The translations under genes and the position numbers were made by a program. From positions 83,974 to 147,973 of the forward strand of contig FR894558.1 in assembly GCA_000436115.1 (NCBI GenBank): 64,000 nt of DNA, read 5' to 3'. The notes beneath the pieces are model-generated. The model had not been told where the DNA came from. It saw nothing but the letters and a program-made list of their open reading frames with translations, and made no database searches. Numbering within the stretch: the first letter of the stretch is position 1; the number at the start of each line of letters is the position of its first letter. Source of the DNA: Firmicutes bacterium CAG:534 (GTDB taxonomy: Bacteria > Bacillota > Clostridia > Lachnospirales > Lachnospiraceae). Positions 7,673 through 33,313 of this stretch are shown piece after piece.

Positions 7673-8736
7673 AAACATCAGATTTTTACTTTGATCTGCC
7701 CCAGGAGCTGATTGCGCAGGATCCTTTGGAGGACAGATCCTCATCAAGGCTTCTTCTGGTGAATAAAAACACAGGAGAAACAAAGCATGAAGTGTTCCGG
7801 AATGTGATCGATTACCTGCATCCGGGAGACTGCCTGGTTTTAAATAATACCAGGGTGATCCCGGCAAGACTGCTTGGACAGAAGGAAGAGACCGGAGCTG
7901 CGGTAGAAATCCTTCTTTTGAAAAGAAGGGAAAAGGATGTATGGGAAACACTGGTACATCCGGGGAAAAAGTTAAAGCCGGGAGCAAGGGTGAGCTTCGG
8001 GGATGGAAGACTGAAGGGAGAGATCCTGGATGTGGTGGAGGAAGGGAACAGGCTGGTAAAATTTGAGTATGAAGGTATTTTTGAGGAAGTGCTGGACAGC
8101 CTGGGAGAAATGCCCCTTCCGCCGTATATCACCCACAAACTGAAGGATAAGAACCGGTACCAGACGGTGTATGCAAAGTATGACGGTTCTGCGGCAGCGC
8201 CCACAGCCGGTCTTCATTTTACCAAGGAGCTTTTAAGACAGATTGAAGAAAAAGGGGTCAGACTTGCTTTTGTAACGCTGCATGTAGGACTTGGAACCTT
8301 CCGGCCGGTGAAGGCGGAGGAGATCACAGAGCATCACATGCATTCGGAATATTATCAGGTTTCAGAAGAGGCTGCCCGGATCATAAATGAAACAAAACAG
8401 GCAGGCGGACGGGTGATCTGCGTAGGGACAACCAGCTGCAGGACGGTTGAGAGTGCGTCAGACTCAAAAGGGGTTGTGGAGCCTGGCTGTGGAAATACGG
8501 AGATCTTTATTTATCCGGGGTACCGGTTTAAGGTGCTGGACTGTCTGATCACCAATTTTCATCTGCCGGAGTCTACACTGGTGATGCTTGTGTCTGCTTT
8601 GGCGGGAAGAGAGCATGTGCTTCATGCCTATGAGGAAGCCATAAAAGAAAAGTACAGATTTTTTTCCTTTGGGGACGCATGCTTTTTTACAGATGACTTT
8701 ACAAAAAACTCCACATCGGCTATTATAAAGCAATAG
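7669..8736 (+). CDS. queA: S-adenosylmethionine:tRNA ribosyltransferase-isomerase
   Basis: 355 aa. N-terminal [19 protein letters not shown] and [11 protein letters not shown] are canonical QueA. Overlaps upstream stop by 4 nt. Confidence 0.9.
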
Positions 8737-8762
8737 GGAGATGTACTTGTCGGCAAAAGCGT

Positions 8763-9113
8763 ATGGAGGTTACGATGGAAGAGAGAAGAAGGGGTAATAG
8801 GATTAAATTGGAATCAACGCTTGTCCTGAACAGACTGGACGGAAACGAAGGACAAAAGGTTGAAATTGATATTTCGGATGTGTCAAAATCGGGAATTGGC
8901 TTTAACTGTAAAGGATTATTGGAAATAGGCTCTGTTTATGAGGCCTTTCTGAGGATCTGGACGCAGGAGGTCATTCATGCCTTTTTGGAGATCGTCCGGA
9001 TCGAAAAATGCGAAGATGGGTACAATTATGGCGCTGTTTTCATTGGAATGCCGGAAACGGAAGCGACCAGAATTGAGGTTTATGATACAGTCAGAACGCT
9101 GCAGGGCAATTAG
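8763..9113 (+). CDS. PilZ-domain (c-di-GMP-binding) small protein
   Basis: 116 aa with RRRGNR (RxxxR) followed by DISDVSKSGIGF (D/NxSxxG), the two c-di-GMP-contacting PilZ motifs. Confidence 0.55.
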   Translation: MEVTMEERRRGNRIKLESTLVLNRLDGNEGQKVEIDISDVSKSGIGFNCKGLLEIGSVYEAFLRIWTQEVIHAFLEIVRIEKCEDGYNYGAVFIGMPETEATRIEVYDTVRTLQGN

Positions 9114-9573
9114 AAATGGAATATTACTGATCATTCTTTATGCTGTTATTTTTTTCTTTTCGGCAGAGGATGGAGAAAGCTCATCAGCAGTCAGCACGCA
9201 GGTTACAAAGACCCTTTTAAAGGCGTATTATGCAATGAGCGAGGGAAAGGGAACCGGAGGCGGCGTGACAGGAGATCTGGTTTGCGCACTGGAAGGCGTG
9301 ATCAGAAAGCTGGCACACTTTACGGAGTATTTCTGTCTGGGGGCTCTTTGGTACAGCATTCCGTTTCTCTGGAAAAAGGCCGGTAAGAAAAGCATTCCTT
9401 CGGTGGCGGGAATATTGCTGCTTTCTGCTGCTGTAGATGAATTTCACCAGTATTTCATTCCGGGAAGGAATGCCTCAGTGAGAGATGTGCTGATTGATGT
9501 GGCCGGTGGAATGACGGCAGTAGCTGTACTATGGATCATAAAAAGATTAAAAAGAAGACTGTGCACTGGATAA
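9082..9573 (+). CDS. VanZ-family membrane protein
   Basis: RKLAHFTEYFCLGAL and DEFHQYFIPGRNASVRDVLIDVAGG blocks typical of VanZ-like proteins. I place the start at ATG 9082 (MIQSERC...), overlapping the PilZ ORF end. The ORF track start at 8977 is less likely. Confidence 0.55.
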   Translation: MIQSERCRAIRNGILLIILYAVIFFFSAEDGESSSAVSTQVTKTLLKAYYAMSEGKGTGGGVTGDLVCALEGVIRKLAHFTEYFCLGALWYSIPFLWKKAGKKSIPSVAGILLLSAAVDEFHQYFIPGRNASVRDVLIDVAGGMTAVAVLWIIKRLKRRLCTG

Positions 9574-9593
9574 AACCGGCGCACAGTTTTTTT
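9558..9593. terminator. bidirectional intrinsic terminator between VanZ-like gene (+) and tyrA (-)
   Basis: ACTGTGCACTGG-6nt-CCGGCGCACAGT imperfect 12-bp stem, T7 on the + strand and an A/T-rich run on the - strand. Confidence 0.5.
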
Positions 9594-10695
9594 AATCAAT
9601 CTCATATATGGTATAACCCTTGGAACAAAGAAGCCTGGAGGCCTTGGAAACGCTTTCTTCATCATAAAATTCAACCCGGAGAATACCGCTTTCCTGCTCC
9701 CTGTTGTGAAGAATGCCAATGTTTTTGATGCTGATAAGATTTAAGGCAAGAATTGTGGCAATGGCAGCCAGTGCACCCGGCTCATCTGCAATGTCCACCC
9801 GCAGCGCATAGGATTTTTTGATGGGGCCGCTGCCTGCATCGATAAAAGAATCCCGGTAGTCCCTTGCTTCCTCAAAAAAGGTATAGAGGGCGTCGCTGCT
9901 TGACGAGTTTATTTCCTCCCGGATCTGCTGAAGGGAGGCAATATAGTCAGATAACAGGGATAAAATGTTTTCCCTGTTTGTCAGACAGATCTGCTGCCAC
10001 ATAACAGGAGAGGAGGAAGCAATTCTGGTGATGTCCTTAAAGCCTCCGGCGGCAATCATTTTCATAGTGCCTTCCCTGGAATCGGAATTCCTAACCAGAT
10101 TGACAAGGGAGGCGGCGATCACATGGGGCAGGTGGCTGATCGCAGCAGTGACATAATCGTGCTCCTTATAGGACAGAACCAGGGGGATGGCGCCCAGGGA
10201 AGCCACCAGCTCGCTGAAGGCATGAACCCGGAAAGCTTCCACTTCCCTGCAGGGAGTCAGAATATAATAGGCGTTCTGAAGCAGCAGAGCCTTAGAGCTC
10301 CCGTAGCCTGTCCGCTCGCTGCCGGCCATGGGATGCCCGCCGATAAACTGCTTTTGAAGCCCGGCCTGTTCGATATGAAGATGAATATCCGTCTTGACGC
10401 TGCCTACATCTGTCAAAAGAGTCTTTGAGGACAGAAAAGGCTGTATTTTTGAAAGGTAAGAGTCATTTTCGGAAACGGGAGCGCATAAAAAGAGATAGTC
10501 ACATGCTGCAAGTTCCCCGCCGATCTCTTCAAGGGGCGTATTGATAACGCCATCTGATACGGCATCCGTGAGGGCCTGTTTATTAATATCATATGCCAGA
10601 AGGCGGCACTCCGGATGGAACTTGCGAAGGGCTCTGGCAATGGAACCCCCGATCAGACCAAGTCCGATAAAACCGCAGGTTAATTGTTCGTTCAT
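9592..10695 (-). CDS. tyrA: prephenate dehydrogenase with C-terminal ACT domain
   Basis: 367 aa. N-terminal GFIGLGLIGGSIARAL Rossmann fold, PDH core, C-terminal ACT-like region. Immediately downstream of DAHP synthase on the same strand. Confidence 0.85.
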   Translation of the reverse strand: MNEQLTCGFIGLGLIGGSIARALRKFHPECRLLAYDINKQALTDAVSDGVINTPLEEIGGELAACDYLFLCAPVSENDSYLSKIQPFLSSKTLLTDVGSVKTDIHLHIEQAGLQKQFIGGHPMAGSERTGYGSSKALLLQNAYYILTPCREVEAFRVHAFSELVASLGAIPLVLSYKEHDYVTAAISHLPHVIAASLVNLVRNSDSREGTMKMIAAGGFKDITRIASSSPVMWQQICLTNRENILSLLSDYIASLQQIREEINSSSSDALYTFFEEARDYRDSFIDAGSGPIKKSYALRVDIADEPGALAAIATILALNLISIKNIGILHNREQESGILRVEFYDEESVSKASRLLCSKGYTIYEID

Positions 10696-10716
10696 AGGTG
10701 AAAGCTTCCTTTTTGC

Positions 10717-11733
10717 TTAGTGAAATTCTCTTCCCATCAACTGACAGAAGGGACGTAGCTGCGTGGTCAGAGCCTCGAATTTCTCAAAGGTTAAGGATTG
10801 AGGCCCGTCTGACAGTGCGTGGGCAGGATCGTTGTGCACTTCGATCATCAGACCGTCCGCATCACAGGCAACAGCAGCCTTTGCCATGGGGGCAACATAG
10901 CGGTAGGAGCCTGTGGAATGAGAAGGATCTACGATGATCGGAAGGTGGGTTTTGGCCCTGAGTACCGGAACGGCGCTGAGATCCAGTGTGTTTCTGGTTG
11001 CAGTCTCAAAGGTTCTGATACCTCTTTCACATAATACAACATTGGGATTGCCTTCTGCAATGATATATTCTGCTGCGTTAAGCCATTCATCTATGGTGGC
11101 ACAGAGCCCTCTTTTTAAAAGCACCGGAAGACCGGATTTGCCGGCTTCCTTCAGAAGAATGAAATTCTGCATGTTACGGGCGCCGATCTGGATCATGTCT
11201 ACATATTTAACGGCTGCTTCTATGGCTTCCTGGCTTACCACCTCACAGATCGTTGCCAGCCCGGTTTCGGCACTGGCAGTCTGCATATAGCGCAGTCCTT
11301 CTTCCTCCAGTCCCTGAAAGGAGTAGGGAGAAGTGCGGGGCTTGTATGCGCCGCCCCGGAGGATGGTTGCACCTGCGGCCTTTACAGCGCGGGCAATGGT
11401 CATGAGTTGTTCTTCTGTTTCTACGGCACAGGGGCCGGCCATAATGGTAAGGTTGCCGGGGCCGATGGAAGTGCTGCCGACCTTTACGGTGGTAGGTTCG
11501 GGATGAAATTTTTTGTTGGCAAGCTTATAGCTTTCCGTAACAGGCACGATGTGGTCCACGTCCTTAAAGACGATAAGGTTTTCAGCGGAAATGCGGGTTT
11601 TATCGCCTACAATGCCGATGATGGTAACCTCTTCTCCTTTGGAAAGATGAACGGATAAGCCGTTGTCCTCAATGTATTTTGTGACGGCATGGATGCTTTT
11701 ATCTGATGCCTGGGGTTTCATGACAATGATCAT
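10717..11733 (-). CDS. aroF: 3-deoxy-7-phosphoheptulonate (DAHP) synthase, class I-beta with N-terminal ferredoxin-like/ACT regulatory domain
   Basis: 338 aa. KDO8PS/DAHPS I-beta core (GPCAVE...LRGGAYKPRTSPYSFQG...) preceded by about 80-aa regulatory domain, as in Thermotoga-type DAHPS. Confidence 0.85.
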   Translation of the reverse strand: MIIVMKPQASDKSIHAVTKYIEDNGLSVHLSKGEEVTIIGIVGDKTRISAENLIVFKDVDHIVPVTESYKLANKKFHPEPTTVKVGSTSIGPGNLTIMAGPCAVETEEQLMTIARAVKAAGATILRGGAYKPRTSPYSFQGLEEEGLRYMQTASAETGLATICEVVSQEAIEAAVKYVDMIQIGARNMQNFILLKEAGKSGLPVLLKRGLCATIDEWLNAAEYIIAEGNPNVVLCERGIRTFETATRNTLDLSAVPVLRAKTHLPIIVDPSHSTGSYRYVAPMAKAAVACDADGLMIEVHNDPAHALSDGPQSLTFEKFEALTTQLRPFCQLMGREFH

Positions 11734-11938
11734 AATTTTATCCTCTTTCTGTATGGGTGATTTTTAAATGCTTTCACAGTATAACGCTTCAACGTGTAAA
11801 AGTCAATATGGATTATATGATTGATCAAATTGAATAATTTTACTTGTAAATTCTCTGAAAATTTAGTAAAATATACTCATGGCATTTGAAAATTATGGCA
11901 TAAATAACCAGATAATCTGGAAAAGCGGAGGGAAGTAT

Positions 11939-14029
11939 ATGAATATTTACACAACTGACAAGATTAGAAACGTTGCTCTCCTTGGGCATGGCGGAAGCGG
12001 TAAGTCCAGTCTGGCAGAAGCAATGGCATATTTATCCGGTATTACATCCAGAATGGGGAAGATCGAGGATGGAAATACGGTCAGCGATTACGGCAAAGAA
12101 GAACAGAAGCGAAAAATTTCAATCAGCACCTCCGTGATCCCGATTGAATGGGAAGGATACAAGATCAATATTTTAGACACTCCCGGTTTTTTTGACTTTA
12201 CCGGCGAGGTGGAAGAAGCGTTAAGCGCAGCAGGCGCGGTGATTATTGTGGTAAACGGCAAGGCCGGCGTGGAAGTGGGAACCAGGAAGGCATGGGAGCT
12301 TTGCGAAAAATACAAGCTGCCCCGCATGATCTACGTCAGCAACATGGATGTGGATAACGCTTCCTTCAGACAGGTTGTAGAGGATATGACCGCTGAATTC
12401 GGAAAGAAAATGGCACCCTTCCATCTGCCGATCCGTGAAAATGAGAAATTTGTGGGATATGTCAATGTGATCACGGAAACCGGTAACCGCTGGCAGGGAA
12501 AGGAAGTGGTGGAGTGTCCGGTTCCGGAATACAATAAGCCGAACCTTCAGATCTGCAGAGATACCCTGATGGAAGCGGTGGCAGAAACCAGCGAGGAAAT
12601 GATGGAGCGGTATTTTGGAGGGGAAACCTTCTCTGAGGCTGAGATCAGGGCGGCTCTTCGGAGCAATGTCTGTGATGGAAGCATTGTCCCCATGACCATG
12701 GGATCAAATGTTCTGTGCCAGGGTATTTACACACTGTTAGATGATGTGATCAAATACTTCCCGAGTCCTGAGAACCGTGAAGTGGCCGGCATTAACATGA
12801 AGACCAATGAGATCTACCATGCAGATTATGACTTTGCAAAGGCAAAATCCGCTTATATCTGGAAGACCATTGTAGATCCCTTTATCGGGAAATATTCCCT
12901 GATTAAGGTAAATTCCGGCGTTCTTAAGACGGATGATCTTATTTACAACGTGGATAAGGATATTGAAGAAAAGATCGGAAAGATCTATGTGCTCCAGGGC
13001 AATAAGCCCATTGAAGTCAAGGAGCTTCATGCAGGAGATATCGGAGCCCTTGCCAAGCTGACAGCGGCAAGAACCGGAAACAGCCTTTCCACTAAGGCGA
13101 CTACCATCAAGTACGGAAAGTGGGAGATGCCGGTGCCTTATACCTATATGAGATACAAACCCAAAAACAAAGGGGATGTAGATAAGCTGTCACAGTCTCT
13201 ACAAAAGATCTCTCATGAAGACCTTACCATGAAATATGTAAATGATGCAGAAAACAGACAGATGCTCTTATACGGAATGGGAGATCTTCACCTGGAGGTA
13301 ATTGCAAGCAGGCTGCTGAACGAATATAAAGTTGAGATCGAACTGAGCAAACCGAAGGTAGCTTTCCGGGAAACCATCCGCAAGAAATCAGATGTAGAAT
13401 ACAAATACAAGAAGCAATCAGGCGGACACGGACAGTATGGCCACGTCAAGATGAAGTTTGAGCCCTCCGGTAATCTGGAAGAGGCATACGAATTTGAACA
13501 GATCGTGGTAGGCGGCGCGGTTCCGAAGAATTACTTCCCGGCAGTGGAGAAGGGAATTCAGGAATCTGTTTTGAAGGGGCCTTTGGCTGCTTATCCGGTT
13601 GTAGGGGTTAAGGCGATCCTTTATGATGGTTCCTATCATCCCGTGGATTCTTCTGAAATGGCATTTAAGATGGCCACCATACAGGCATTCAAAAAAGGCT
13701 TCCTGGAGGCAGGGCCGGTGCTGCTTGAGCCTATCGTGGCGTTAAAGGTAACGGTTCCTGACAGCTATACAGGCGATATCATGGGAGATCTGAATAAGAG
13801 AAGGGGCCGCGTGAACGGCATGAACCCTGCGCCCGGCGGCAAGCAGGTGATTGAAGCGGATGTGCCGATGATGGAACTGTTTGGCTACTGTACGGATCTT
13901 CGGTCCATGACAGGAGGAAGAGGAGAATACGAGTACAGCTTTGCAAGATACGAACAGGCACCTGGCGATGTACAGGAAAAGGAAGTGGCTGCCAGGGCTG
14001 CAAAGTTAAGTGAAGGCGTAGAAGAATAG
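11939..14029 (+). CDS. elongation factor G paralog (EF-G-like GTPase with degenerate catalytic motifs)
   Basis: Start moved to ATG 11939 (GGAGGGAAG RBS). G1 GHGGSGKSS. Domain IV SGGHGQYGHV and domain V LLEPI...GDIMGDLNKRRGRV are EF-G-like. Switch II reads DTPGFFDF (canonical DTPGHVDF) and G4 reads SNMD (canonical NKMD). Confidence 0.8.
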   Translation: MNIYTTDKIRNVALLGHGGSGKSSLAEAMAYLSGITSRMGKIEDGNTVSDYGKEEQKRKISISTSVIPIEWEGYKINILDTPGFFDFTGEVEEALSAAGAVIIVVNGKAGVEVGTRKAWELCEKYKLPRMIYVSNMDVDNASFRQVVEDMTAEFGKKMAPFHLPIRENEKFVGYVNVITETGNRWQGKEVVECPVPEYNKPNLQICRDTLMEAVAETSEEMMERYFGGETFSEAEIRAALRSNVCDGSIVPMTMGSNVLCQGIYTLLDDVIKYFPSPENREVAGINMKTNEIYHADYDFAKAKSAYIWKTIVDPFIGKYSLIKVNSGVLKTDDLIYNVDKDIEEKIGKIYVLQGNKPIEVKELHAGDIGALAKLTAARTGNSLSTKATTIKYGKWEMPVPYTYMRYKPKNKGDVDKLSQSLQKISHEDLTMKYVNDAENRQMLLYGMGDLHLEVIASRLLNEYKVEIELSKPKVAFRETIRKKSDVEYKYKKQSGGHGQYGHVKMKFEPSGNLEEAYEFEQIVVGGAVPKNYFPAVEKGIQESVLKGPLAAYPVVGVKAILYDGSYHPVDSSEMAFKMATIQAFKKGFLEAGPVLLEPIVALKVTVPDSYTGDIMGDLNKRRGRVNGMNPAPGGKQVIEADVPMMELFGYCTDLRSMTGGRGEYEYSFARYEQAPGDVQEKEVAARAAKLSEGVEE

Positions 14030-14051
14030 TTCTTTTTAGAAGAAGGGAAAG

Positions 14052-14084
14052 GGATGCTGTGAGGGGTACGCAGCATCCTTTTTA
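14052..14084 (+). terminator. intrinsic terminator after EF-G paralog
   Basis: GGATGCTG-11nt-CAGCATCC stem followed by TTTTT. Confidence 0.6.
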
Positions 14085-14109
14085 CTGTAGAGAAAAAACG
14101 GTGCATTTC

Positions 14110-14138
14110 TTGACATTTTGACATAATATAGGTAAAAT
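14110..14138 (+). promoter_or_regulatory. sigma-A-type promoter for leuS
   Basis: TTGACA (14110-14115), 17-nt spacer, TAAAAT (14133-14138). No T-box or other leader between it and leuS. Confidence 0.45.
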
Positions 14139-14184
14139 TAGGTCTGGCTTGTAGTGCAATGAGGAAAGGAGCATGAGGACTAAG

Positions 14185-16596
14185 ATGGCAGTACCTTATA
14201 ATCACAGAGAAGTAGAAACGAAATGGCAGGAGATCTGGGACAAGAACAAGGCGTTCAAGACCTCTGACGATTATTCAAAACCGAAATATTACGCACTGGT
14301 AGAATTTCCCTATCCTTCGGGACAGGGACTTCATGTAGGGCACCCGAGACCTTACACAGCGCTTGACATTGTTGCAAGAAAAAGAAGAATGCAGGGCTAT
14401 AATGTCCTTTATCCCATGGGCTGGGATGCGTTTGGACTTCCCACTGAAAATTATGCGATCAAGAACCATATCCATCCCAAGATTGTAACGAAGAATAATG
14501 TGGCAAGATTTAAGAATCAGCTTCATTCCCTGGGATATTCCTTTGACTGGGACCGCGAGATCAATACAACGGATCCGGGCTACTATCATTGGACACAGTG
14601 GATCTTTTTAAAGCTTTTTAATGCGGGACTTGCCTATAAGGCAGAAATGCCCATCAACTGGTGCACCTCCTGTAAGGTAGGACTTGCCAATGAAGAGGTT
14701 GTAAACGGCGTATGCGAGCGCTGCGGAAGCGAGGTGGTCCGTAAGGTAAAGAGCCAGTGGATGCTGAAGATCACAGCCTATGCCGACAAGCTTTTGGAGG
14801 GACTTGACAGCGTAGATTATGTAGAGCGCGTAAAGGTCTCCCAGAAAAACTGGATTGGAAAATCAACGGGAGCAGAGGTAGACTTTGCGTTAAAGGATAA
14901 AGAAGATAAGCTGACCGTATATACAACAAGACCGGACACCCTGTTTGGCGTTACCTATATGGTTATGAGTCCGGAGCATCCTTTTATTGACAAATATAAG
15001 GACAGCATCGAAAACTGGGATGAAGTTGTGGCATACAGGGAAATGGCTGCAAGAAAGTCAGATTTTGAGCGTACGGAGCTTGCCAAGGACAAGACCGGCG
15101 TGATGCTGAAGGGCTTTACGGCAGTAAATCCCGTCAACAATAAAGAGGTTCCTGTGTGGATCTCCGACTATGTATTGATGTCCTACGGAACCGGAGCAAT
15201 TATGGCGGTGCCTGCTCATGATGAAAGAGACTGGGATTTTGCAAAGAAATTCAACATGCCTATCATCGAGGTAGTAGCAGGAAGCCCTGTGGATGTGAAT
15301 GAAGCTGTTTACACAGACGTTGCAACCGGAACCCTGGTAAACTCAGAATTTTTAAATGGGCTGTCTGTTGCGGAAGCAAAGGAAAAGATCATTGCATTCC
15401 TGACAGAGAAGGGCATTGGCCATCAGAAGACGAATTTTAAACTTCGTGACTGGGTATTTTCCAGACAGCGTTACTGGGGAGAGCCTATTCCCATTGTGAA
15501 ATGTGAGAAGTGCGGTTATGTGCCTCTCCCGGAAAGCGAACTGCCCTTAGAGCTTCCTGAGGTAGAAAGCTATATGCCTACCGACAATGGAGAATCCCCT
15601 CTTGCACACATGACCGAGTGGGTGAAGACCACCTGCCCTAAGTGCGGCGGCAGCGCTATGAGAGAAACCGATACGATGCCTCAGTGGGCCGGTTCCTCCT
15701 GGTATTTCCTTCGCTATACAGATCCGACCAACGATAAGGAGCTTGCAAGCAAGGAGGCATTAAATTACTGGATGCCTGTTGACTGGTATAACGGTGGAAT
15801 GGAGCATACCACCCTTCACCTTCTGTATTCCCGTTTCTGGCACAGATTTTTGTATGATCAGAAGGTAGTGCCCTGTCCGGAGCCTTACATGAAGAGAACC
15901 TCCCATGGAATGATCCTGGGGTCAAACGGCGAAAAGATGAGTAAGTCCCGCGGCAATGTAGTAAATCCGGATGACATTGTAAGGGATTACGGTGCAGATA
16001 CTCTTCGTACCTACGAAATGTTTATCGGAGCATTTGAACTGAGCGCAGCCTGGTCAGAGGACGGCGTAAAGGGATGCCGCAGGTTCCTGGAAAGAGTATG
16101 GAAGCTGCAGGATATTCTTACAGAGGATGAGAGCTATTCCAAGGATCTGGAGATCAAGATGCACCAGACCGTTAAGAAGGTCAGCGGCGATTTTGAGTGC
16201 CTGAAATATAATACTGCAATAGCGGCAATGATGGCCCTGATCAATGAATTCTACAAGAAAAATGCAGTGACCAGGGGAGAGCTTAAGACGCTGCTTACTC
16301 TTTTAAATCCGGTGGCTCCTCATATCACAGAGGAAATCTGGCAGAGCGCAGGCTTCGAGGGCTATATTTACGAAAACACCTGGCCGGAGTATGACGAGGC
16401 CAAGACCATCGAGGCAACCATTGAAATCGCAGTTCAGATCAACGGCAAGGTAAAGGGTACTCTTGCAGTGGAAAGAGATGCGGCAAAGGAAGATGTGATT
16501 GCAAAAGCAAAGGAAGCTGTTGCAGATAAGCTTACCGGAAACATTGTCAAAGAGATCTACGTTCCGGGAAGACTGGTAAATATTGTTCAGAAATAA
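14185..16596 (+). CDS. leuS: leucine--tRNA ligase
   Basis: Class I aaRS motifs [12 protein letters not shown] (HIGH) and KMSKS. About 804 aa. Start placed at ATG 14185 (GAGGA RBS) rather than 14173. Confidence 0.95.
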
Positions 16597-16603
16597 GAAA
16601 AAC

Positions 16604-16647
16604 GGCTCTGAGGATCATTTACGATTCCTCAGAGCCATTATTTTTTC
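16604..16647. terminator. bidirectional intrinsic terminator (leuS / convergent minus-strand operon)
   Basis: Perfect 11-bp stem GGCTCTGAGGA / TCCTCAGAGCC with 11-nt loop. ATTATTTTTT on + strand and TTTTTCTTATTTC on - strand. Overlaps the last codons of the minus-strand ORF. Confidence 0.65.
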
Positions 16648-16884
16648 AATCTTGGAAAGTTCCTCCGGAGTGGCGGATTTCCGGAGAACGGCAACGATCG
16701 CACTGATCTCGTCTTCGGAAAAGGAGACGTTTTTTTCTTTGCCGCGCTTCATTACCGCCATGAGAAAAGGGAGCATCTGCTCTTTTTTTAAATTACTGCT
16801 TTCAAAGACCAGAGCCTGCAGAAACTGAAGCTTATAAGGCTCGATGTTCTTCAGGCTTTCATCATTCATCCAATCATTCTGCAT
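16615..16884 (-). CDS. hypothetical protein (about 89 aa), second gene of coupled pair
   Basis: Start taken at ATG 16884 (MQNDWMNDESL...) because GGAGG lies 8 nt upstream and the ATG overlaps the upstream stop as ATGCAGAATGA. No recognisable domain. Confidence 0.5.
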   Translation of the reverse strand: MQNDWMNDESLKNIEPYKLQFLQALVFESSNLKKEQMLPFLMAVMKRGKEKNVSFSEDEISAIVAVLRKSATPEELSKIEKIMALRNRK

Positions 16885-17368
16885 TGCTGTTACCTCCAAA
16901 TAATTCAAACATTTGCTTTTGCTCAGGGGAGAGCATATTCATTAATACATTCATGACGTCAAAGGAACCGGCGTCTGCGCCGTCACCGCTTTCAGCGCCT
17001 GGCGGCGGCATAAAGTCCTTCATCAGATCCATTGTCTTTGACATTTCGCGGTACATTTCCATGCTTTGAAAAATATTTTTGATCTGCAATAGCTTTTGCT
17101 TTTCTGCTTCTGTGCAGAAGGGGAGCAGTTCCTCACACAAACAGCCGATATCCGGCTTTTCTTCCTGCTGGACACAGCCGCAAAGAGGGAAGGGGTGTTT
17201 TCGGTAAAAATCAAGGGTATAATTCAGTTCCAGAAACTTAATGTACACAGCAAGGGTTTTCTGGGTTTGATGATCGGCATAGGGCAGAAGGACTTTCAGC
17301 ATTTGTATGTGGTTCGTGGAAAAAAGAGTGTCAAATGCAACGACCTTACTGCTCCTGTTTTTATCCAT
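16874..17368 (-). CDS. hypothetical protein (164 aa) with CGC-x11-CLC-x6-C cysteine cluster
   Basis: AAGGAG RBS 6 nt before ATG 17368. Internal PLCGCVQQEEKPDIGCLCEELLPFC Cys cluster and acidic G/D/A-rich segment. Translationally coupled to downstream ORF. No family recognised. Confidence 0.55.
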   Translation of the reverse strand: MDKNRSSKVVAFDTLFSTNHIQMLKVLLPYADHQTQKTLAVYIKFLELNYTLDFYRKHPFPLCGCVQQEEKPDIGCLCEELLPFCTEAEKQKLLQIKNIFQSMEMYREMSKTMDLMKDFMPPPGAESGDGADAGSFDVMNVLMNMLSPEQKQMFELFGGNSNAE

Positions 17369-17420
17369 GGCTGCTCCTTTGATGCAGTTTCCATATTTTA
17401 TGATTTTACTTTAGTCGATA

Positions 17421-17450
17421 TGCAGAAAAGTAGGCCCTTTTCAGGGCCTG
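17421..17450 (-). terminator. intrinsic terminator after the small Cys-rich ORF (minus strand)
   Basis: On the minus strand AGGCCC-TGAAAA-GGGCCT hairpin followed by ACTTTTCTG, 40-70 nt after the ORF stop. Confidence 0.5.
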
Positions 17451-17488
17451 CTTTCCGGACATGGTAGATAGAAAAGAAAAGAGAGAAA

Positions 17489-17731
17489 TTAGCATCCGCA
17501 ACCGCAGCCGCTGTTGTTATTGCTTCCGCAGCAGCCAAGAAGTAACAGGATCAGGATAATGCTTTCGCATCCACAACCGTTGTCAGAGCCAAGGGAAAGG
17601 CCGCTGCCGTTGTTTCCGCAGCCACCGCAGAAGAATAATAAAATGATGATCCAGATGATAGAGCTGCAGCAGCCGTTATTGGAGTTGTTTGATGTGCCGC
17701 ATCCACATCCTGTAGCTGTTAAGTCACTCAT
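17489..17731 (-). CDS. small (80 aa) Cys/Gly/Asn/Ser-rich protein with two Ile/Leu hydrophobic cores, unknown family
   Basis: Canonical GGAGG-6nt-ATG. Product MSDLTATGCGCGTSNNSNNGCCSSIIWIIILLFFCGGCGNNGSGLSLGSDNGCGCESIILILLLLGCCGSNNNSGCGCGC. Own terminator downstream. Low-complexity, so coding status is not certain. Confidence 0.5.
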   Translation of the reverse strand: MSDLTATGCGCGTSNNSNNGCCSSIIWIIILLFFCGGCGNNGSGLSLGSDNGCGCESIILILLLLGCCGSNNNSGCGCGC

Positions 17732-17898: not shown

Positions 17899-19107
17899 AT
17901 GACGGCGGAAAGTCTGACCGTTGCGGGGAGGCACTTTCGCACAAAAGCGGATTATGAAGCTGCACTACGCGATCAGAAGAAAATAAACACCATCAAGGCA
18001 CAGACAGACCTGGAAGATCCCGTACAACTTTATGAACTGTATGGCGAGATGCAGAGTGGAATTTACCGGTTTGAAACACTGGTAGGAAATGACTTTGATG
18101 ATGAAATTTATGAAAAAATAGAAAAATTAAAGAAACAGGGCATTACGGCCCAAAATGCAGCCCGTTTTTTTCCCAAGGGAAAAGCGGGGAAAGGGAAAAA
18201 GGGGAAAAAAGAAAAGAAAGCCCATAGATCTGCACAGGGGACAAGCAAACCAAAGAAAAAAGAAATACCGTCTGGAGCCATGGACAAAATCATGGAAGAA
18301 CAGGTGCTTTTAGAACTAAGAAGGCGGGAAAAGCGCAGAAAACTCATTGTCCTGGCAGCTTCCGTGGTGGCGGTAGCAAGCCTTTCCTATTTTGGAGTTT
18401 ATTATTTTGTGGCAGCCAGGAACAATGCAAGCTATGAACAGCTTGCCGCCCTAAAGGGCAGCGATGTTTTAGCAGATGCCAAGGATAAAAATGATTTTGC
18501 GATCCATAAGACCGCAGTTCAGCTCCCGGATGTGCTGGATGAATATAAAACTTTATACGAAAAGAATAAAAAGCTAATCGGATGGCTTAAAATTGACGAT
18601 ACAATAATAGATTACCCTGTTATGCAGACTGGTGACAATTCCTATTACCTGGAACACAATTTCAATCAGGAGTATGACAAGAACGGAAGTCTTTTTCTGG
18701 ATTATAATTGCAGTATTTATCCCCGTTCCACCAATCTGATCATTTACGGGCATCATATGAAATCAGGGCAGATGTTCGGACAGCTTCAAAAGTATGCCAA
18801 GCAGTCTTATGGCGAGAAGCATTCCATCATTACGTTTGACAGTATTTACGAAAAGGCAACCTATCAGGTCATGTATGTATTCCGATCTCAGGTGTACAAT
18901 GAGGATGACCTGGTTTTTAAGTATTATCAGTTCATTGACGCTAATTCCAAAAAGGAATTTGATTCTTACATGAATGAAATGGCGAAAATGAGCCTGTATG
19001 ATACGGGTGTGACAGCAAGCTATGGAGACAGTCTTTTGACCTTGTCTACCTGTGACAATTCACAGACAGACGGAAGGTTTGTTGTAGTAGCAAAGAGAAT
19101 TAAGTAA
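17899..19107 (+). CDS. srtB: class B sortase with about 155-aa cytoplasmic N-terminal extension
   Basis: Catalytic-domain signatures YLEHNFNQEYDKNGSLFLD, IIYGHHM, LTLSTCD (TLxTC Cys) and trailing conserved Arg. Single TM helix at about residues 158-180. Lys-rich N-terminal domain (KGKAGKGKKGKKEKK). Confidence 0.85.
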   Translation: MTAESLTVAGRHFRTKADYEAALRDQKKINTIKAQTDLEDPVQLYELYGEMQSGIYRFETLVGNDFDDEIYEKIEKLKKQGITAQNAARFFPKGKAGKGKKGKKEKKAHRSAQGTSKPKKKEIPSGAMDKIMEEQVLLELRRREKRRKLIVLAASVVAVASLSYFGVYYFVAARNNASYEQLAALKGSDVLADAKDKNDFAIHKTAVQLPDVLDEYKTLYEKNKKLIGWLKIDDTIIDYPVMQTGDNSYYLEHNFNQEYDKNGSLFLDYNCSIYPRSTNLIIYGHHMKSGQMFGQLQKYAKQSYGEKHSIITFDSIYEKATYQVMYVFRSQVYNEDDLVFKYYQFIDANSKKEFDSYMNEMAKMSLYDTGVTASYGDSLLTLSTCDNSQTDGRFVVVAKRIK

Positions 19108-19124
19108 CCAAAGGAGTGTTACAG

Positions 19125-22100
19125 ATGACGAAAACAGCAAAGAAAAATAGAAAGCTGAAAAGACAGGTAAGGAAAACCATTGGAGGCCTTTTTATGGCCT
19201 CTGCTATTGTGATAGCGGCATTACCTGTACAGGATGTCAGTGCAAATCCGGGAGAGGCAGCCAAACCTGCACCGAAGGTCTGGGTATGGGATAGCCAGGG
19301 GAAGAGAACAGGAGATCTGGCAGGAACGCCGGATTCTTCCATAAAGTCCTTCTGCGAGAGCACGATCCCTTATGTGCCGGATGATGCAACGATTTATACC
19401 TCCGGTGACGGAAGATTTCAGTTTGCTTATGTCAATCCGGGGGATGGAGTAAGATCCGCAGTTATCCTGAATTATAATTCTACGGTATTACAGGACAGTA
19501 CGCTTACAATTCCCAATTCTCTGGAGGCGTTCCGGAAATATAAGACAACTCAGACAGAGGGCGGATATTGCCTGGTTACACAAAACGATGAATTTATGTT
19601 TTATGATGTGTACGAACAGGATTATGTGATGGATGGAAGTAGCCAGGTGCTGCTGTATTATGTTCCGGAGATCAAGTATGACACAGACAAGCATCCGGTG
19701 CCTGCAGGTTCAAGCTACAATGTGGGAGAGTCCATGGTTGTCAACAAAAATCAGCTTGTTACCAGAGATGATAAGCTGGTATACATTGATCCCACAGATC
19801 CTTATGAGTATGATGAAAATGGAATTGCAATCGGAGAGAAGCTTTTTGATGTAACGGAGCGTATGGTGACTCACCAGAAGCCCTGCTATTATGAGCAGCG
19901 CTCCATCTGGGGAGATCAGGACGATAATAAGCTGTATTACCAGGTGAAGAAATCTGTCAATGATAATAAGCCAAATGGAGATTTGATCCATCCTACGGAT
20001 AACGACCATTACAGAATTAATGCCAGCGTGAAATATATCGGACAGCAGTTTATTGATACCAATACCGTAGACGGAACCTGGAGCGTGCGCAAAAACGCAT
20101 ATCGTACAGGCCCGGATGACGGCGTGTTTGCTAACAACGCCAACATCACGAACCTGGTCATCGGAGAAAATCTTTCCGGTATCAGCGACTATGCTTTTCA
20201 GGGGTGTGCAACCCTTCAGAGCGTAAGCTTTGGAAACAACCTGTCAACCGTTGGAAATGGCGCCTTTGCAAACTGCATCAGATTATCACAGTGTAATATG
20301 CCTGTGGAATCCAATATCCAGTCGCTTGGAAAGGATGCGTTTTACAACTGTACGGCGCTTACCAGTATTACCCTGCCAATCAACGTGAAAGCCATTGGAG
20401 ATTCCTGCTTTGAGGGATGCACCAGATTACAGACTGTGGACTTATGCGGAGGCAGTGAAGATGAACTGGACACCATGCTTCAGACTATCGGAAATTCTGC
20501 ATTTAAGAATTGCAGTTCTCTGGGCGAGGTTATTTTCCCCAGCCAGTATGCAGAAAGCAATCTGCAGATCGGCGTATTTGAGGGGTGTTCAAATTTACAG
20601 CGTGTAAAAGTACCAAACAGCAATATGGATTTTACAGATGATACATCCTTCACCTTTGAGACGTTTAAGGATACAGTGCCGGAAAGCTTTTATTTCTGGG
20701 GAGCAGATACCAAGACGGATGACAGAATTGGCAGATCTGCTTTGCATGTAACGGCGAATGAGGAAGAAATTGCTTATAAATACTGGGATAAGGAAGTGTA
20801 CGAGGTTGTGATCTCGGAAGCGGCAACAGGAGCCTCTATCACCTATCAGGTAAATGACCGAAACGAACTGACCAAGATCTGGATCGAGGGAAATCCTGAA
20901 AATGTGGAAATTCCCAAACGGATCGGACCTTATGGAATATCAACTATAGGAACCGGCTGCTTCGACAATGCGTGTACCATTAAGCGTGTTACGATCCCGG
21001 AAACGGTTGCAAATATTGCAGACGGCGCATTTAAGGGAACCCACAATCTGAAAACCGTGATCTTCAGCAATGCGTCAACCATCCAGAGCATCGGAACGGA
21101 TGCGTTCCGCACACAGGTTGTATCCTGCGGGGATAAAATTACGGAAGAAGATCCTGAGCTTACCTTTGTAGGGGCTATGATCAATGACGCCGGGACAGAT
21201 ACAGTACCGTTCATCTACGCCATGACGCCGGAAAACATGATCAACAATCCGGATCAAAATAAGGCATGGATTACCTGTCACAGTGGCTGGCCTACCAATC
21301 TGGAAGTAAAATATAATTATGATTACACAACCGAAGAGGGCGGCGCAGAACTGGAAAGCTATCCCAGATATGATAACTTTACGGATGCCATTACAGATGC
21401 AAGCGGTAATATTACAGGCTTTAAATCCAACAGGGGCAAGATAGAGGCCTATGTGGCGCAGCTTCCCTATGTGAATACTTCGGATGATACGGAAGAAACC
21501 TATCTTGCTGATGTGATCCAGGAAGCGATTGACCGCTGCGAAAAGAATGATCCTGCCAACCTTCCTACAGAAAAGATGCTTGAGCTTGTAAATGCATCCA
21601 AAAATGTAGTGGTGCCTACCAACGTAGATATGCTGAAAAAGGGACTCTTTTCCGGTTATACATATAAAACAGACAGTAACGGAGAGCCTATTGTACCTGA
21701 AGAAGCAGAGGTTGTTGGAACAGAAGGACCAGACACCTATATTAACTCGATTACTTTAAATGGTGTGAATACCATTGATCCGTTTACCTTTACCGGATGC
21801 AGTAATCTTCAAAGTGCAGCGATTATCGGGGCCACAGAGCTGGGCGATTATGCTTTTGGCTGTCTGGAAGAGCTGGACGGTATCACCGGAGTGATTAATT
21901 CAACCAGTGAAAATTGTGAAAATCTTTCCAGCGTTACCTTAGGCCCTAATATTGCAACGGTAGGAATGAGGCCGTTCAGAGGCTGCGATAAGCTCACCAA
22001 CATAGAATGCCTTGGCAGTAATCTGGCATATCAAAACGGTATTTTATATGATTTGAACAATGGTAAAAAGACCATTGCGGAATGTCTGCCCGGAAGAGGA

Positions 22101-24089: not shown

Positions 24090-24098
24090 GAGTATTCC

Positions 24099-26846: not shown

Positions 26847-26863
26847 AGAGAGAACTGAGTAGA

Positions 26864-26904
26864 AACTCCCGGCATATGATAAGAAAAAGGCCGGGAGTTT
26901 TTTT
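26864..26904 (+). terminator. intrinsic terminator ending the sortase/surface-protein operon
   Basis: AACTCCCGGC-16nt-GCCGGGAGTT stem followed by TTTTTT, 18 nt after the stop at 26846. Confidence 0.65.
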
Positions 26905-27828
26905 ATGCTTCGGGTAAGACGGCAAATAGGCTGCAGCGATGAACTGCTGGATACCTGCAGGGGATCAGGAGTGACGGTTGCTATGTTAGACACCGGAGTG
27001 GCTCCCCATCCGGATTTTGAAAACAGAGTGATCGCCTTTGCAGATTTTGTGAATGAAAGAAGGACCCGGTACGATGACAGCGGGCATGGAACCCATGTTG
27101 CCGGGTGTTTGTGCGGCAGTGGACGTGTATCAAGGGGGCGCTATAAGGGAATTGCGCCTGACAGTCTTCTGGTGGTGGGAAAGGTTCTTGATTATAAGGG
27201 GGACGGAATATTAGAGAGCATGCTCCGCGGAATGGAGTGGATCCTTGGAATACAAAACAGATACAATATCCGCATTTTAAATATCTCTATTGGAATGGGA
27301 AGCGCACCTAATCAGGATAAAATGATGCAGCTCCTGTCGCTGGTGGATGAGGCGTGGAAACAGGGGATCACAGTAGTATGTGCAGCAGGAAATATGGGGC
27401 CAAAGCCCATGAGCCTGTCGCCGTTGGGACAACGGGAGCAGGTGATTACGGTGGGGTGCCATGAGGGAGGATATTTTGGAAACCGAAAAGGACTGTGCGA
27501 GGATTATTCCAGCAGGGGACCAAGCCCCTATGCAATGAAAAAACCGGATATTGTGGCGCCGGGAACAGAGATTATTTCCTGCAGCTCAGGGATCAGGCTG
27601 AAAGGGCGTTGTTACCAGAATGCTTATGCAGCCAAGAGCGGGACCTCCATGGCAACGCCTATCGTATCGGGAGGTGCGGCGCTGCTATTGCAGAAAAATC
27701 CGGCCCTGTCGAATGAAGAGGTAAAAAGGAAGCTGCTGCATACGGCGCATGATCTGGGAGAACCATGGAATAAGCAGGGATGGGGAATGATTGATATAAA
27801 AAAACTGCTGGAAAACGCAGGGGGATAA
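26905..27828 (+). CDS. subtilisin-like serine protease (peptidase S8), no signal peptide
   Basis: Catalytic triad blocks VAMLDTGV (Asp), HGTHVAGC (His), GTSMATPIVSGGAALL (Ser). 307 aa, no hydrophobic N-terminus. ATG 26905 is the first start after an in-frame stop at 26860 and has no SD. Confidence 0.8.
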   Translation: MLRVRRQIGCSDELLDTCRGSGVTVAMLDTGVAPHPDFENRVIAFADFVNERRTRYDDSGHGTHVAGCLCGSGRVSRGRYKGIAPDSLLVVGKVLDYKGDGILESMLRGMEWILGIQNRYNIRILNISIGMGSAPNQDKMMQLLSLVDEAWKQGITVVCAAGNMGPKPMSLSPLGQREQVITVGCHEGGYFGNRKGLCEDYSSRGPSPYAMKKPDIVAPGTEIISCSSGIRLKGRCYQNAYAAKSGTSMATPIVSGGAALLLQKNPALSNEEVKRKLLHTAHDLGEPWNKQGWGMIDIKKLLENAGG

Positions 27829-30075: not shown

Positions 30076-31270
30076 AATGCAGACTCCCCTGGTGGAGATG
30101 GATGGAGATGAAATGACCAGAATTCTCTGGAAGATGATAAAGGATGAGCTTCTCCTTCCATTTATAGATTTAAAAACGGAATACTATGATCTGGGACTGG
30201 AACACAGAAATGAAACCAATGACCAGGTAACAGTGGACAGCGCCAATGCAACCCTGAAGTACGGAGTGGCAGTAAAATGTGCGACCATTACTCCTAACGC
30301 AGCCAGAATGACAGAGTACAATCTGAAGGAAATGTGGAAAAGCCCCAACGGAACCATCAGAGCCATTCTGGATGGAACTGTATTCAGAGCGCCCATTCTG
30401 GTAAACGGGATCGTACCTTATGTAAAGAACTGGACGAAACCCATTACCATTGCCCGTCATGCTTATGGGGATGTTTATAAGAATGCAGAAATGAAGATCC
30501 CGGGAAAGGGCAGGGCAGAACTGGTCTTTACAGCAGAGGACGGAACACAGACAAGAGAGCTGATCCATGACTTTGACGGAGCAGGGATCATCCAGGGAAT
30601 CCACAACACTGAAAAGTCTATTTCCAGCTTTGCAAGAGCCTGCTTTAGCTATGCGGTAGACACCAGGCAGGATCTGTGGTTTTCCACAAAGGATACGATT
30701 TCCAAGAAGTATGACCATACCTTTAAGGACATTTTCCAGGAGATCTACGAAAAGGAATATAAGGAAAAATTTGAGAAGCTTGGGATCGAGTATTTCTATA
30801 CGTTGATTGATGATGCCGTAGCGAGAGTGATCCGTTCAGAAGGCGGATTTATCTGGGCATGTAAAAACTATGATGGAGATGTGATGTCAGATATGGTGGC
30901 AACCGCATATGGAGATCTGTCCATGATGACCTCTGTTCTGGTATCCCCCAACGGTGTTTATGAGTATGAAGCGGCGCATGGAACCGTACAGCGCCACTAT
31001 TATAAGCACCTGAAGGGAGAGGAGACTTCTACCAACTCCATTGCTACGATCTTTGCATGGACAGGGGCGCTTAGAAAGCGCGGAGAGCTGGATCAGAACG
31101 CAGCGCTCATGCAGTTTGCGGATAAACTGGAAAAAGCCTGCATCAAGACCGTTGAAGACGGCAAGATGACAAAGAGCCTGTCTTTGATTTCCACCTGTGA
31201 GCATCCGGTAATCTTAAACAGTCTTGAGTTTATTCAGGCCATCAGGGAAACACTGGAGAGCCTTATGTAG
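30062..31270 (+). CDS. icd: NADP-dependent isocitrate dehydrogenase, subfamily II (eukaryotic-type homodimeric)
   Basis: [56 protein letters not shown] blocks align residue-for-residue with IDH1/IDH2-type enzymes. TTG start 30062 has GGAGG 7 nt upstream (alternative ATG 30077). Overlaps GntR stop. Confidence 0.9.
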
Positions 31271-33176: not shown

Positions 33177-33313
33177 TGATGTTTCTTCCTTATTTTTATT
33201 ATATTCTGTATTCCGTTTCAGTTTACAGAGGATAAAAGGGAATGTCAATGAATTGACATTATTTTAACATTGTTATATATTTAACTTATATCAAAAAACA
33301 GGGGGCATTCCAA

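Follow-up and report, generated by a model that had tools for sequence, protein, structure and literature searches.

An EFG II-type paralog of elongation factor G (EF-G) is encoded on the forward strand at 11939..14029 of the window, by which we mean the whole 64-kb stretch of DNA that was analyzed. The product has 696 amino acids, followed by a stop codon. The maximal open reading frame in the ORF listing is 11879..14029 (forward strand); translation in fact begins with the ATG at 11939, with both the ribosome-binding site and the N terminus kept in 20 close orthologs. The ribosome-binding site, GGAGGG at 11927..11932 on the forward strand, lies 6 nt 5' of this ATG, and GGAGG keeps this distance both here and in the 20 close orthologs. 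An earlier sequence-only reading had placed the gene next to aroF and tyrA, and we observed the same: the genes for DAHP synthase (aroF, 10717-11733) and prephenate dehydrogenase (tyrA, 9592-10695) are both seen on the reverse strand, and leuS is the downstream neighbor. The gene lies outside the str operon (rpsL-rpsG-fusA-tuf). The public annotation labels the gene plainly as "elongation factor G", which masks both its status as a paralog and the missing catalytic His.

Synteny of the paralog with tyrA and leuS is kept across orthologs. The aroF gene is adjacent in just 14 of 80 orthologs, and in several species additional genes lie between the paralog and leuS. Since the synteny with tyrA and leuS fits vertical inheritance inside one family, and aroF adjacency is infrequent, we considered but rejected a functional coupling of the paralog to aroF/tyrA or leuS. 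No mobile-element genes were found near the gene, and its core-chromosome context is kept across 80 species. The gene forms a unit by itself and has been passed on vertically in Lachnospiraceae chromosomes.

The gene has transcription signals of its own on both sides, as proposed earlier. Upstream, a promoter-like site of the sigma-70 type, TTGTAA-17 nt-TAAAAT at 11844..11872 (forward strand), has 9 of 12 matches and is weak when taken alone. Transcription is predicted to start at about 11879, the position with which the upstream ATG (11879) coincides. Based on an upstream alignment of the query and 20 close orthologs, CTTGTA and TAGTAAAAT with the ensuing CATGG are kept. Downstream, an intrinsic terminator at 14048..14084 on the forward strand, 19 nt past the stop codon, consists of a G+C-rich hairpin followed by UUUUU. 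This hairpin is strong (-23 kcal/mol, z = -5.9), and none of 200 shuffles was as stable. An Rfam search of 8500-17500 returned no riboswitch, T-box or leader RNA around the paralog or leuS.

The promoter spacer holds a CodY-box-like palindrome, AATTCTCTGAAAATT at 11849..11863 (forward strand). It differs by 1 mismatch from the CodY box consensus AATTTTCWGAAAATT (PMC12772354) and is the sole site with at most 1 mismatch in the 64-kb window, across which CodY-like sites are not enriched. Sites with at most 2 mismatches were found in 10 of 78 upstream regions (77 orthologs and the query), as compared to 2 of 1560 shuffles. Of the palindrome, the right half coincides in part with conserved sequence flanking the -10 element, and only about 10 of 21 close relatives carry the left half. 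Given this overlap with a conserved part of the promoter, we downgraded the site to a lead only, a weak candidate for an operator. A probe with an unverified B. subtilis CodY sequence detected codY neither in the window nor in the ortholog loci.

The five-domain architecture of EF-G, including the G' insertion, is confirmed in the paralog. The Pfam domains GTP_EFTU, EF-G_D2, EFG_III, EFG_IV and EFG_C were found with E-values of 1e-11 to 1e-43, in agreement with the resemblance to EF-G over domains I-V noted earlier; the strings SGGHGQYGHV, LLEPI and GDLNKRRG, named in that note, are all present. An AF2 model has a pLDDT of 90.8 and superimposes onto ribosome-bound EF-G with a TM-score of 0.95. 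The top Foldseek matches of the model are all EF-G, and EFG I and EFG II are not separable by this fold search, given that all EF-G structures match and that their rank tracks conformation.

Motifs were paired in a residue-by-residue alignment to T. thermophilus EF-G, and all coordinates given for them are on the forward strand. The G1 motif, or P-loop, GHGGSGKSS (residues 16-24; 11984..12010) aligns with AHIDAGKTT. It has an intact GxxxxGK[ST] and the Gly16 of EFG II, a P-loop Gly noted by Atkinson 2015, and Gly stands in place of both the hydrophobic-gate Ile and the monovalent-cation Asp of AHIDAGKT. In G2, or switch I, RKISI (residues 58-62; 12110..12124) takes the place of RGITI, of which it retains the Arg and both Ile, and fits the RxxSI of Clostridia EFG II. 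G3, or switch II, reads DTPGFFDF (residues 80-87; 12176..12199) and aligns with DTPGHVDF; DTPG is retained, and the position of the catalytic His is occupied by Phe84 (codon TTT, 12188-12190). In G4, SNMD (residues 134-137; 12338..12349) replaces NKMD, with the Asp kept and the Asn and Lys lost, and G5 (GS) is retained. The changes of the switch II His to Phe and of NKxD to SNMD that had been read from the DNA are genuine. In domain IV, loop I, KYKKQSGGHGQYGH (residues 489-502; 13403..13444), includes KYKK (residues 489-492), the basic signature of EFG II, which is kept in orthologs. Loop II, GSYHPVDSSE (residues 564-573; 13628..13657), is the translocation tip with its conserved His. The two loops are invariant (loop II is identical in 74 of 80).

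The paralog belongs to the EFG II (EF-G2) subfamily and, within it, to the Clostridia branch. It passes NCBIfam NF009381 (PRK12740.1-5, "elongation factor G" subfamily) with 864.4 bits at a cut-off of 583, the match spanning protein residues 1-689 and model positions 1-688 of 692. The score for the canonical EF-G equivalog TIGR00484 is 635.9 bits, below the cut-off of 659.4, and the four canonical motifs are all altered. Also below their cut-offs are the Bacteroides-type EF-G2 model NF058620 (539.5 versus 1000) and the EF-G2-like model NF009377 (564.5 versus 890). The type I signature of Margus et al. 2011 consists of Gly16, Leu25, Thr291, Gly333 and Lys/Arg352 in 1WDT numbering. All five residues are present here, as G16, L25, T310, G354 and K373, where the canonical columns have A, T, I/V, A and G. 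EFG II proteins have lost the RGITI consensus of G2, the Clostridia pattern being RxxSI with Ser in fourth place, and they carry a basic K/R-x-K-K at positions 469-472 in loop I of domain IV. In a neighbor-joining tree of 145 sequences, a crude distance tree without support values, the 5 canonical sequences group in a clade apart, and the query is placed together with 1WDT inside the EFG II-like sequences. Among solved structures, its G domain is nearest to 1WDT and 7UVP.

Within EFG II, a missing His is the rule, and the paralog is not a factor of a new kind. In a set of 144 EFG II-like representatives, the His position is occupied by Tyr in 75, Phe in 31, other residues in 36 and His in 2; hence 142 of the 144 lack the His that all 5 canonical representatives possess. 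The change from His is no peculiarity of this gene but the normal state of EFG II. Solved members also differ from the canonical motifs in switch II and G4, with DAPGYGDF/TKLD in 1WDT, DCPGSDDF/NQLD in 7UVP and DTPGYADF/TKLD in 9K0Z. Lys is absent from G4 in 52 of the 144 representatives, 16 of which have Arg, so a strict NKxD is not universal in EFG II. According to Margus et al., as a rule from 305 genomes, EFG II always occurs beside another EF-G, usually EFG I. No other translational GTPase was found in the 64-kb window, in which tblastn with the paralog returned only itself, and a canonical EF-G representative used as a probe detected no second EF-G in the window or in the 80 ortholog loci with their 8-kb flanks.

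In 80 species-level Lachnospiraceae orthologs, the switch II position is never His but always Tyr or Phe, and the clade with at least 89% identity has Phe84 throughout. G4 is SNMD in 64 of 80 aligned sequences (79 orthologs and the query), the others having TNMD, SNID, TDMD or DDMD. Across the Lachnospiraceae orthologs the pattern is [S/T/D][N/D][M/I]D, and all are Lys-less. The loss of the G4 Lys and the fixation of Phe are lineage-specific refinements. With a dN/dS of about 0.03-0.06 in every domain, the G domain included, the paralog is under strong purifying selection. The exact 696-amino acid protein is indexed in 388 blocks of an assembly collection, representing hundreds of independent assemblies with the same gene context. 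Nothing but the unusual motifs would suggest that the sequence is in error or that the gene is a fusA copy decaying into a pseudogene, and the recurrence of the exact protein in independent assemblies, the same residue states in 80 orthologs and an intact frame with a dN/dS of about 0.04 rule this explanation out.

The closest known group is the Clostridia sub-subgroup of EFG II (Margus, Remm & Tenson 2011), with which the paralog shares the five domains and G', Gly16, Leu25, the Thr, Gly and Lys of domain II, the KYKK loop, RxxSI, a location outside the str operon and the lack of the switch II His. It differs at the EFG II type II positions Asp216 and Val250, which are Ser and Met here, and in G4: Margus et al. 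described NKxD as conserved, whereas the paralog and its clade at about 60% identity or above have [S/T][N/D/E]MD. Of the solved structures, T. thermophilus EF-G-2 (1WDT/2DY1) matches the G domain best; at 37% identity overall, it has a similar P-loop (GH.GSGK..), an aromatic residue at the His position and the KYKKQTGGHGQYG loop. Unlike the paralog, it has Tyr rather than Phe, keeps the Lys in its G4 (TKLD), comprises 665 amino acids with deletions in G' and is reported to be GTPase-active. EF-G2 of B. thetaiotaomicron (fusA2; 7UVP/8DMF) also comes from a gut commensal, has Ser for His, a Lys-less G4 (NQLD) and the P-loop G.SGSGKT. It is from another EFG II branch, however, with 718 amino acids including an insertion and YGYSV as G2, and its regulator BT4338/Cur is specific to Bacteroidetes. 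M. smegmatis EF-G2 (9K0Z/9K10) resembles the paralog in having Tyr for the catalytic His (DTPGYADF) and a diverged P-loop, and is non-essential with minimal ribosome-dependent GTPase activity. It differs in G4 (TKLD), has an unrelated G2 of the qqRSV type, is more diverged overall and is reported to lack translocation and recycling activity. With canonical EF-G (EFG I, the fusA product of the str operon), the paralog has the fold, the domain IV loops and the domain V motifs in common at 35-38% identity, but AHIDAGKTT, RGITI, DTPGH and NKxD are all altered.

The sequence-only reading predicted a GTP-binding factor impaired in hydrolysis and possibly of altered specificity. Impaired ribosome-stimulated hydrolysis is a reasonable expectation: H88Y nearly abolishes the GTPase activity of M. 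smegmatis EF-G1, M. smegmatis EF-G2 has minimal GTPase activity, and B. thetaiotaomicron EF-G2 supports slow translocation without GTP hydrolysis according to papers citing Han et al. 2023 (PMC9841332). A dead GTPase, on the other hand, is unproven, given that T. thermophilus EF-G-2 was reported to hydrolyze GTP and to translocate despite the Tyr at the His position; loss of the His alone is thus no predictor of activity. The interchange of Tyr and Phe among orthologs indicates that the hydroxyl group is dispensable. Altered specificity is not supported, since the Asp that specifies guanine is still there in G4, and the P-loop, DxxG and G5 show no disruption. With the Asn and Lys of G4 lost, nucleotide binding might nevertheless be weaker than in the studied members.

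We consider it probable, at roughly 60%, that this Clostridia-branch EFG II protein serves beside canonical EF-G, under nutrient or GTP scarcity, as an auxiliary factor that translocates slowly and hydrolyzes GTP weakly or not at all. Family membership, conservation and purifying selection come from our own analyses; that the protein binds nucleotide, fails to hydrolyze it and acts as a translocase, and when it is used, we infer by analogy with the studied proteins. The paralog would still bind guanine nucleotide and Mg2+, the P-loop, DxxG, the switch I Ser, the G4 Asp and G5 being intact, and would dock onto the ribosome as EF-G does. Its unchanged domain IV tip would enter the decoding center, and tRNA-mRNA translocation would thus be possible. 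Four losses, namely the switch II His (to a non-polar Phe), the P-loop cation Asp, the P-loop gate Ile and part of RGITI, lead us to expect very weak or absent ribosome-stimulated GTP hydrolysis. This may result in slow translocation and slow factor release, at a lower GTP cost per step; in E. coli, H92A EF-G still carries out multi-turnover translocation and its release is slow. Auxiliary use beside canonical EF-G would most plausibly occur when nutrients or GTP are scarce. In B. thetaiotaomicron, carbon limitation induces EF-G2, and gut colonization depends on it.

Alternatively, like T. thermophilus EF-G-2, the paralog could translocate with full GTPase activity and simply be a second EF-G isoform that hydrolyzes GTP by means of another residue or at a high intrinsic rate. 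Consistent with this, Gly16 has been linked to raised intrinsic GTPase activity, purifying selection on the G domain equals that on the rest of the protein, and the Arg and both Ile of RGITI survive in RKISI. We regard it as unlikely, however, because the Phe fixed in the clade has no group to position or activate water, H88Y leaves a canonical EF-G almost without GTPase activity, the cation-binding Asp and gate Ile of the P-loop are gone as well, and of the three EFG II proteins studied, two lack the activity.

The earlier suggestion of a ribosome-binding regulator rather than a translocase is not favored by our results, and that of a protection factor is unsupported. Translocation is not a universal activity of EFG II: M. 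smegmatis EF-G2 binds non-rotated ribosomes and apparently does not act in this way. This protein, called a stress-specific factor, combines minimal GTPase activity with a lack of recycling and sits on non-ratcheted 70S with its G domain displaced from the sarcin-ricin loop. A similar non-translocating, stress-specific regulator that holds the factor site of 70S or 50S and modulates or silences translation would agree with that suggestion. Such a role is quite improbable for the paralog, in which loops I and II of domain IV do not vary and are of the same type as in translocating EF-Gs; moreover, the Clostridia branch has diverged least from EFG I, and the EFG II proteins of B. thetaiotaomicron and T. 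thermophilus both translocate. A ribosomal protection or antibiotic-resistance factor, whether Tet(M)/Tet(O)-like or a drug-insensitive substitute for EF-G, might be suspected from an EF-G-like GTPase outside the str operon, and Tet models do register through weak family resemblance. Their scores are far below the cut-offs, with 272.9 bits versus 775 for tet_protect and 179.9 versus 1100 for the TetM/W model (NF012153, NF033148), and TetM in the PDB is matched by the N-terminal part only. The core-chromosome context conserved in 80 species and free of nearby mobile-element genes, vertical inheritance and strong purifying selection also argue against this role, which we consider highly unlikely.

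An auxiliary, slow translocation factor of the Clostridia branch would extend the known family and leave current concepts unchanged. More speculatively, an inert Phe, the lack of the cation-binding Asp and a G4 without Asn and Lys make possible a translocation factor that never hydrolyzes GTP. The Lachnospiraceae EFG II protein could then be an independent Firmicute counterpart of Bacteroides EF-G2, perhaps with weak or relaxed nucleotide binding, and be switched on through a CodY-type operator under nutrient limitation. We think this doubtful, but if true, it would place the Lachnospiraceae EFG II further along than any studied EF-G2. Lachnospiraceae are the dominant gut Firmicute family and have their own EFG II conserved under strong purifying selection. 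As Bacteroides need a hydrolysis-deficient EF-G2 to colonize the gut, low-cost or slow translocation may perhaps be a common strategy in the gut. The interchange of Tyr and Phe and the Lys-less G4 provide natural variants for probing the switch II residue and G4 in EFG II.

Alignment with T. thermophilus EF-G recovered every substitution that the sequence-only reading had listed for the 696-aa protein encoded at 11939-14029 (+). AHIDAGKTT is replaced by GHGGSGKSS in G1, RGITI by RKISI in G2, DTPGHVDF by DTPGFFDF in switch II, and NKMD by SNMD in G4. [quoted passage not shown] Sequencing error is ruled out by 388 index blocks of public assemblies containing the identical protein, on contigs that reach several hundred kb in length, with constant gene context, together with orthologs in matching states. 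Sampling a single genome for each species yielded 80 orthologs with 82-92% identity; nearly all belong to Lachnospiraceae, including Parablautia muri, Acetatifactor, CAG:95 and numerous MAGs. Orthologs retaining His had been considered as a possibility, but in the aligned set of 79 orthologs plus the query the switch II position is occupied by Tyr (55) or Phe (25) and never by His. The G4 motif reads SNMD in 64 of these sequences, TNMD in 10, SNID in 3, TDMD in 2 and DDMD in 1. Pairwise comparison with orthologs gave dN/dS of about 0.03-0.06 per domain, G domain included, rough values given partly saturated dS, and indicates that the gene is under selection.

In the classification of Margus, Remm and Tenson (2011; PMC3150367), bacterial EF-G paralogs fall into EFG I, spdEFG1, spdEFG2 and EFG II. 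These authors described as marks of EFG II two residues of the P-loop region (Gly16 and Leu25), three of domain II (Thr291, Gly333 and Lys352), a domain IV whose loop I is basic, and loss of RGITI with Ser at its fourth position, which takes the form RxxSI in a Clostridia sub-subgroup. Using the numbering of the 1WDT sequence (T. thermophilus EF-G-2), which agrees with the PDB at 665/665 residues, we found G16, L25, T310, G354 and K373 at the signature columns of the query, plus KYKK and RKISI, so that each of these marks is present. The query scored 864 bits against NCBIfam NF009381 (cut-off 583), and fell under the NCBIfam cut-offs for canonical EF-G, Bacteroides EF-G2, the EF-G2-like NF009377 and all Tet models; the last result speaks against the earlier suggestion of a protection factor. 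In a distance tree of 145 sequences, five canonical representatives formed a separate clade and the query was nested among EFG II-like proteins with 1WDT. A confident AlphaFold model (pLDDT 90.8) reached a TM-score of 0.95 on ribosome-bound EF-G, a fold comparison that does not separate EFG I from EFG II. By its sequence, the query is thus classified as an EFG II protein of the Clostridia pattern.

Loss of the switch II His, the key feature noted earlier, is already described for EFG II and is the norm of this family. From the 150 best cluster representatives (50% identity) we removed one C-terminal fragment without a G domain and tabulated the remaining 149; the five canonical ones all have His. 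Among the 144 that are EFG II-like, the His position is occupied by Tyr in 75, Phe in 31, Asp in 8, Leu in 7, Ala and Ser in 5 each, Asn and Thr in 4 each, His in only 2, and three singletons. Solved structures likewise lack this His: the motifs are GHAGSGKTT, DAPGYGDF and TKLD in T. thermophilus EF-G-2, with Tyr at this position, DTPGYADF and TKLD in M. smegmatis-type EF-G2 (9K0Z), and DCPGSDDF and NQLD in B. thetaiotaomicron EF-G2 (7UVP/8DMF). [quoted passage not shown] Atkinson (2015) noted that the EFG II P-loop has Gly where other translational GTPases hold a cation-binding Asp.

The query adds minor lineage-specific motif variants to this known, partly characterized kind of protein. Margus et al. 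(PMC3150367) listed NKxD as conserved in EFG II, and the G4 Lys is kept in 92 of the 144 EFG II-like representatives, with Arg in 16 more. The pattern [S/T/D][N/D/E][M/I]D is found in all 80 orthologs and in every one of the closest representatives (identity of about 60% or above). Loss of Asn and Lys with retention of Asp is a derived trait of this Lachnospiraceae-level clade, for which B. thetaiotaomicron NQLD is a partial precedent. Fixation of Phe in place of Tyr is a further, genus-level change: Phe is fixed in the query's clade at ≥89% identity (21/21), and Tyr predominates elsewhere.

The elements for GTP-Mg binding are intact and invariant (GxxxxGK[S/T], switch I Ser, DxxG, G4 Asp and G5), as is the domain IV tip, which is shared with canonical EF-G (loop I QSGGHGQYGH, loop II GSYHPVDSSE). 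The changes affect hydrolysis-activating elements, with His replaced by Phe, P-loop Ile and Asp by Gly, and RGITI partly altered. Based on these features and published parallels, we favor, with a probability of roughly 60%, an auxiliary, slow and hydrolysis-poor translocation factor. Guanine nucleotide-Mg would be bound through the retained elements and translocation driven by the unchanged domain IV tip, and ribosome-activated GTP hydrolysis would be poor with activating elements altered or gone. The impaired hydrolysis proposed in the sequence-only reading is a reasonable prediction; its suggestion that the protein may not be a translocase is disfavored by the invariant domain IV tip.

E. 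coli H92A EF-G retains multiple-turnover translocation but departs very slowly from the ribosome. B. thetaiotaomicron EF-G2 reportedly catalyzes translocation without GTP hydrolysis; it is induced by carbon limitation and is required for gut colonization. Two other relatives count against a hydrolysis-poor translocase: T. thermophilus EF-G-2, with Tyr, is reportedly GTPase-active, and M. smegmatis EF-G2 seems to be without translocation activity. A substitute catalytic role of the residue at the His position is argued against by the free interchange of Tyr and Phe among orthologs, which indicates that the ring and not the hydroxyl is selected.

The maximal open reading frame spans 11879-14029 (+). 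Most database entries and the earlier reading use the ATG at 11939, which is preceded by a ribosome-binding site GGAGGG (11927-11932, +). Common among metagenome gene calls are 716-aa versions (for example, the database entries P0002 and P0003), which begin at an upstream in-frame ATG and add 11879-11938 (+). In an alignment of upstream regions from the query and 20 close orthologs, both GGAGG and the N terminus are conserved, and the alternative ATG lies within a conserved CATGG directly 3' of the -10 element, coinciding with the predicted transcription start. For these reasons the 716-aa entries are over-extensions, and 11939 is supported as the real start. The promoter (CTTGTA, 17 nt, TAGTAAAAT) is conserved in the same alignment, and 19 nt 3' of the stop lies a hairpin (-23 kcal/mol, z = -5.9) and then UUUUU, in agreement with the promoter and terminator proposed earlier. 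The promoter spacer contains a palindrome, AATTCTCTGAAAATT (11849-11863, +), which matches the CodY consensus AATTTTCWGAAAATT at 14/15 positions with one mismatch. Such sites are enriched upstream of the closest orthologs, occurring at the same place in about 10/21 close relatives (among them loci L018, L011, L014, L006 and L001-L003), with a perfect match in L018, and are absent upstream of Acetatifactor-type orthologs. The right half overlaps the conserved promoter flank; the left half is present in about half of the close relatives. We consider this a candidate CodY site only.

As noted earlier, genes for DAHP synthase (aroF) and prephenate dehydrogenase (tyrA) adjoin the EFG II gene. They are on the opposite strand, and leuS lies downstream. 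The order tyrA(-), EFG II(+), leuS(+) is conserved (tyrA in 73/80 orthologs, leuS in 58/80), and aroF is adjacent in only 14/80. The same region holds the housekeeping genes pheST, queA, leuS, alr, ftsK, fhs and folD, and we read the synteny as vertical inheritance in preference to functional coupling. Canonical fusA was not found in the 64-kb window or the 80 orthologous loci. Among 305 genomes, a lone EF-G gene was always EFG I, and EFG II always occurred alongside another EF-G (Margus et al., PMC3150367). No Rfam elements are present around the EFG II gene.

In ten orthologous loci (L004, L005, L008, L010, L016, L035, L038, L043, L045 and L047), genes inserted after the EFG II stop shift leuS downstream by 2-5 kb relative to its place in the window. 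Directly 5' of leuS is a near-consensus promoter-like site, TTGACA-17-TAAAAT (14110-14138, +); no T-box or other Rfam leader was detected in the leuS leader. Upstream of tyrA, most orthologous loci keep two genes. One (8763-9113, +) encodes a small protein with a PilZ domain that may be a c-di-GMP receptor, and it overlaps the start of the other, which encodes a VanZ-family membrane protein (8977-9573, +). A second ribosome-associated NTPase of the window is a 661-aa ABC-F ATPase (31263-33248, -) that resembles EttA and Uup and passes the NCBIfam model "ribosomal protection-like ABC-F family protein" (473 bits, cut-off 380). Nearly all residues of an 80-aa open reading frame (17489-17731, -) are Cys, Gly, Asn or Ser; it contains two hydrophobic segments (…GCGCGTSNNSNNGCC…GCGCGC) and has no Pfam match. 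Two small conserved open reading frames adjoin it, at 16615-16908 (-) and at 16874-17368 (-), and likewise match no family; the latter is conserved 3' of leuS in 50/80 loci. Finally, 17899-27828 (+) encodes, in this order, a class B sortase, two very large surface proteins (1657 and 915 aa) with leucine-rich-repeat/adhesin-like and Listeria-Bacteroides repeats, and a subtilisin-like S8 peptidase, which is probably a sortase-dependent adhesin cluster.
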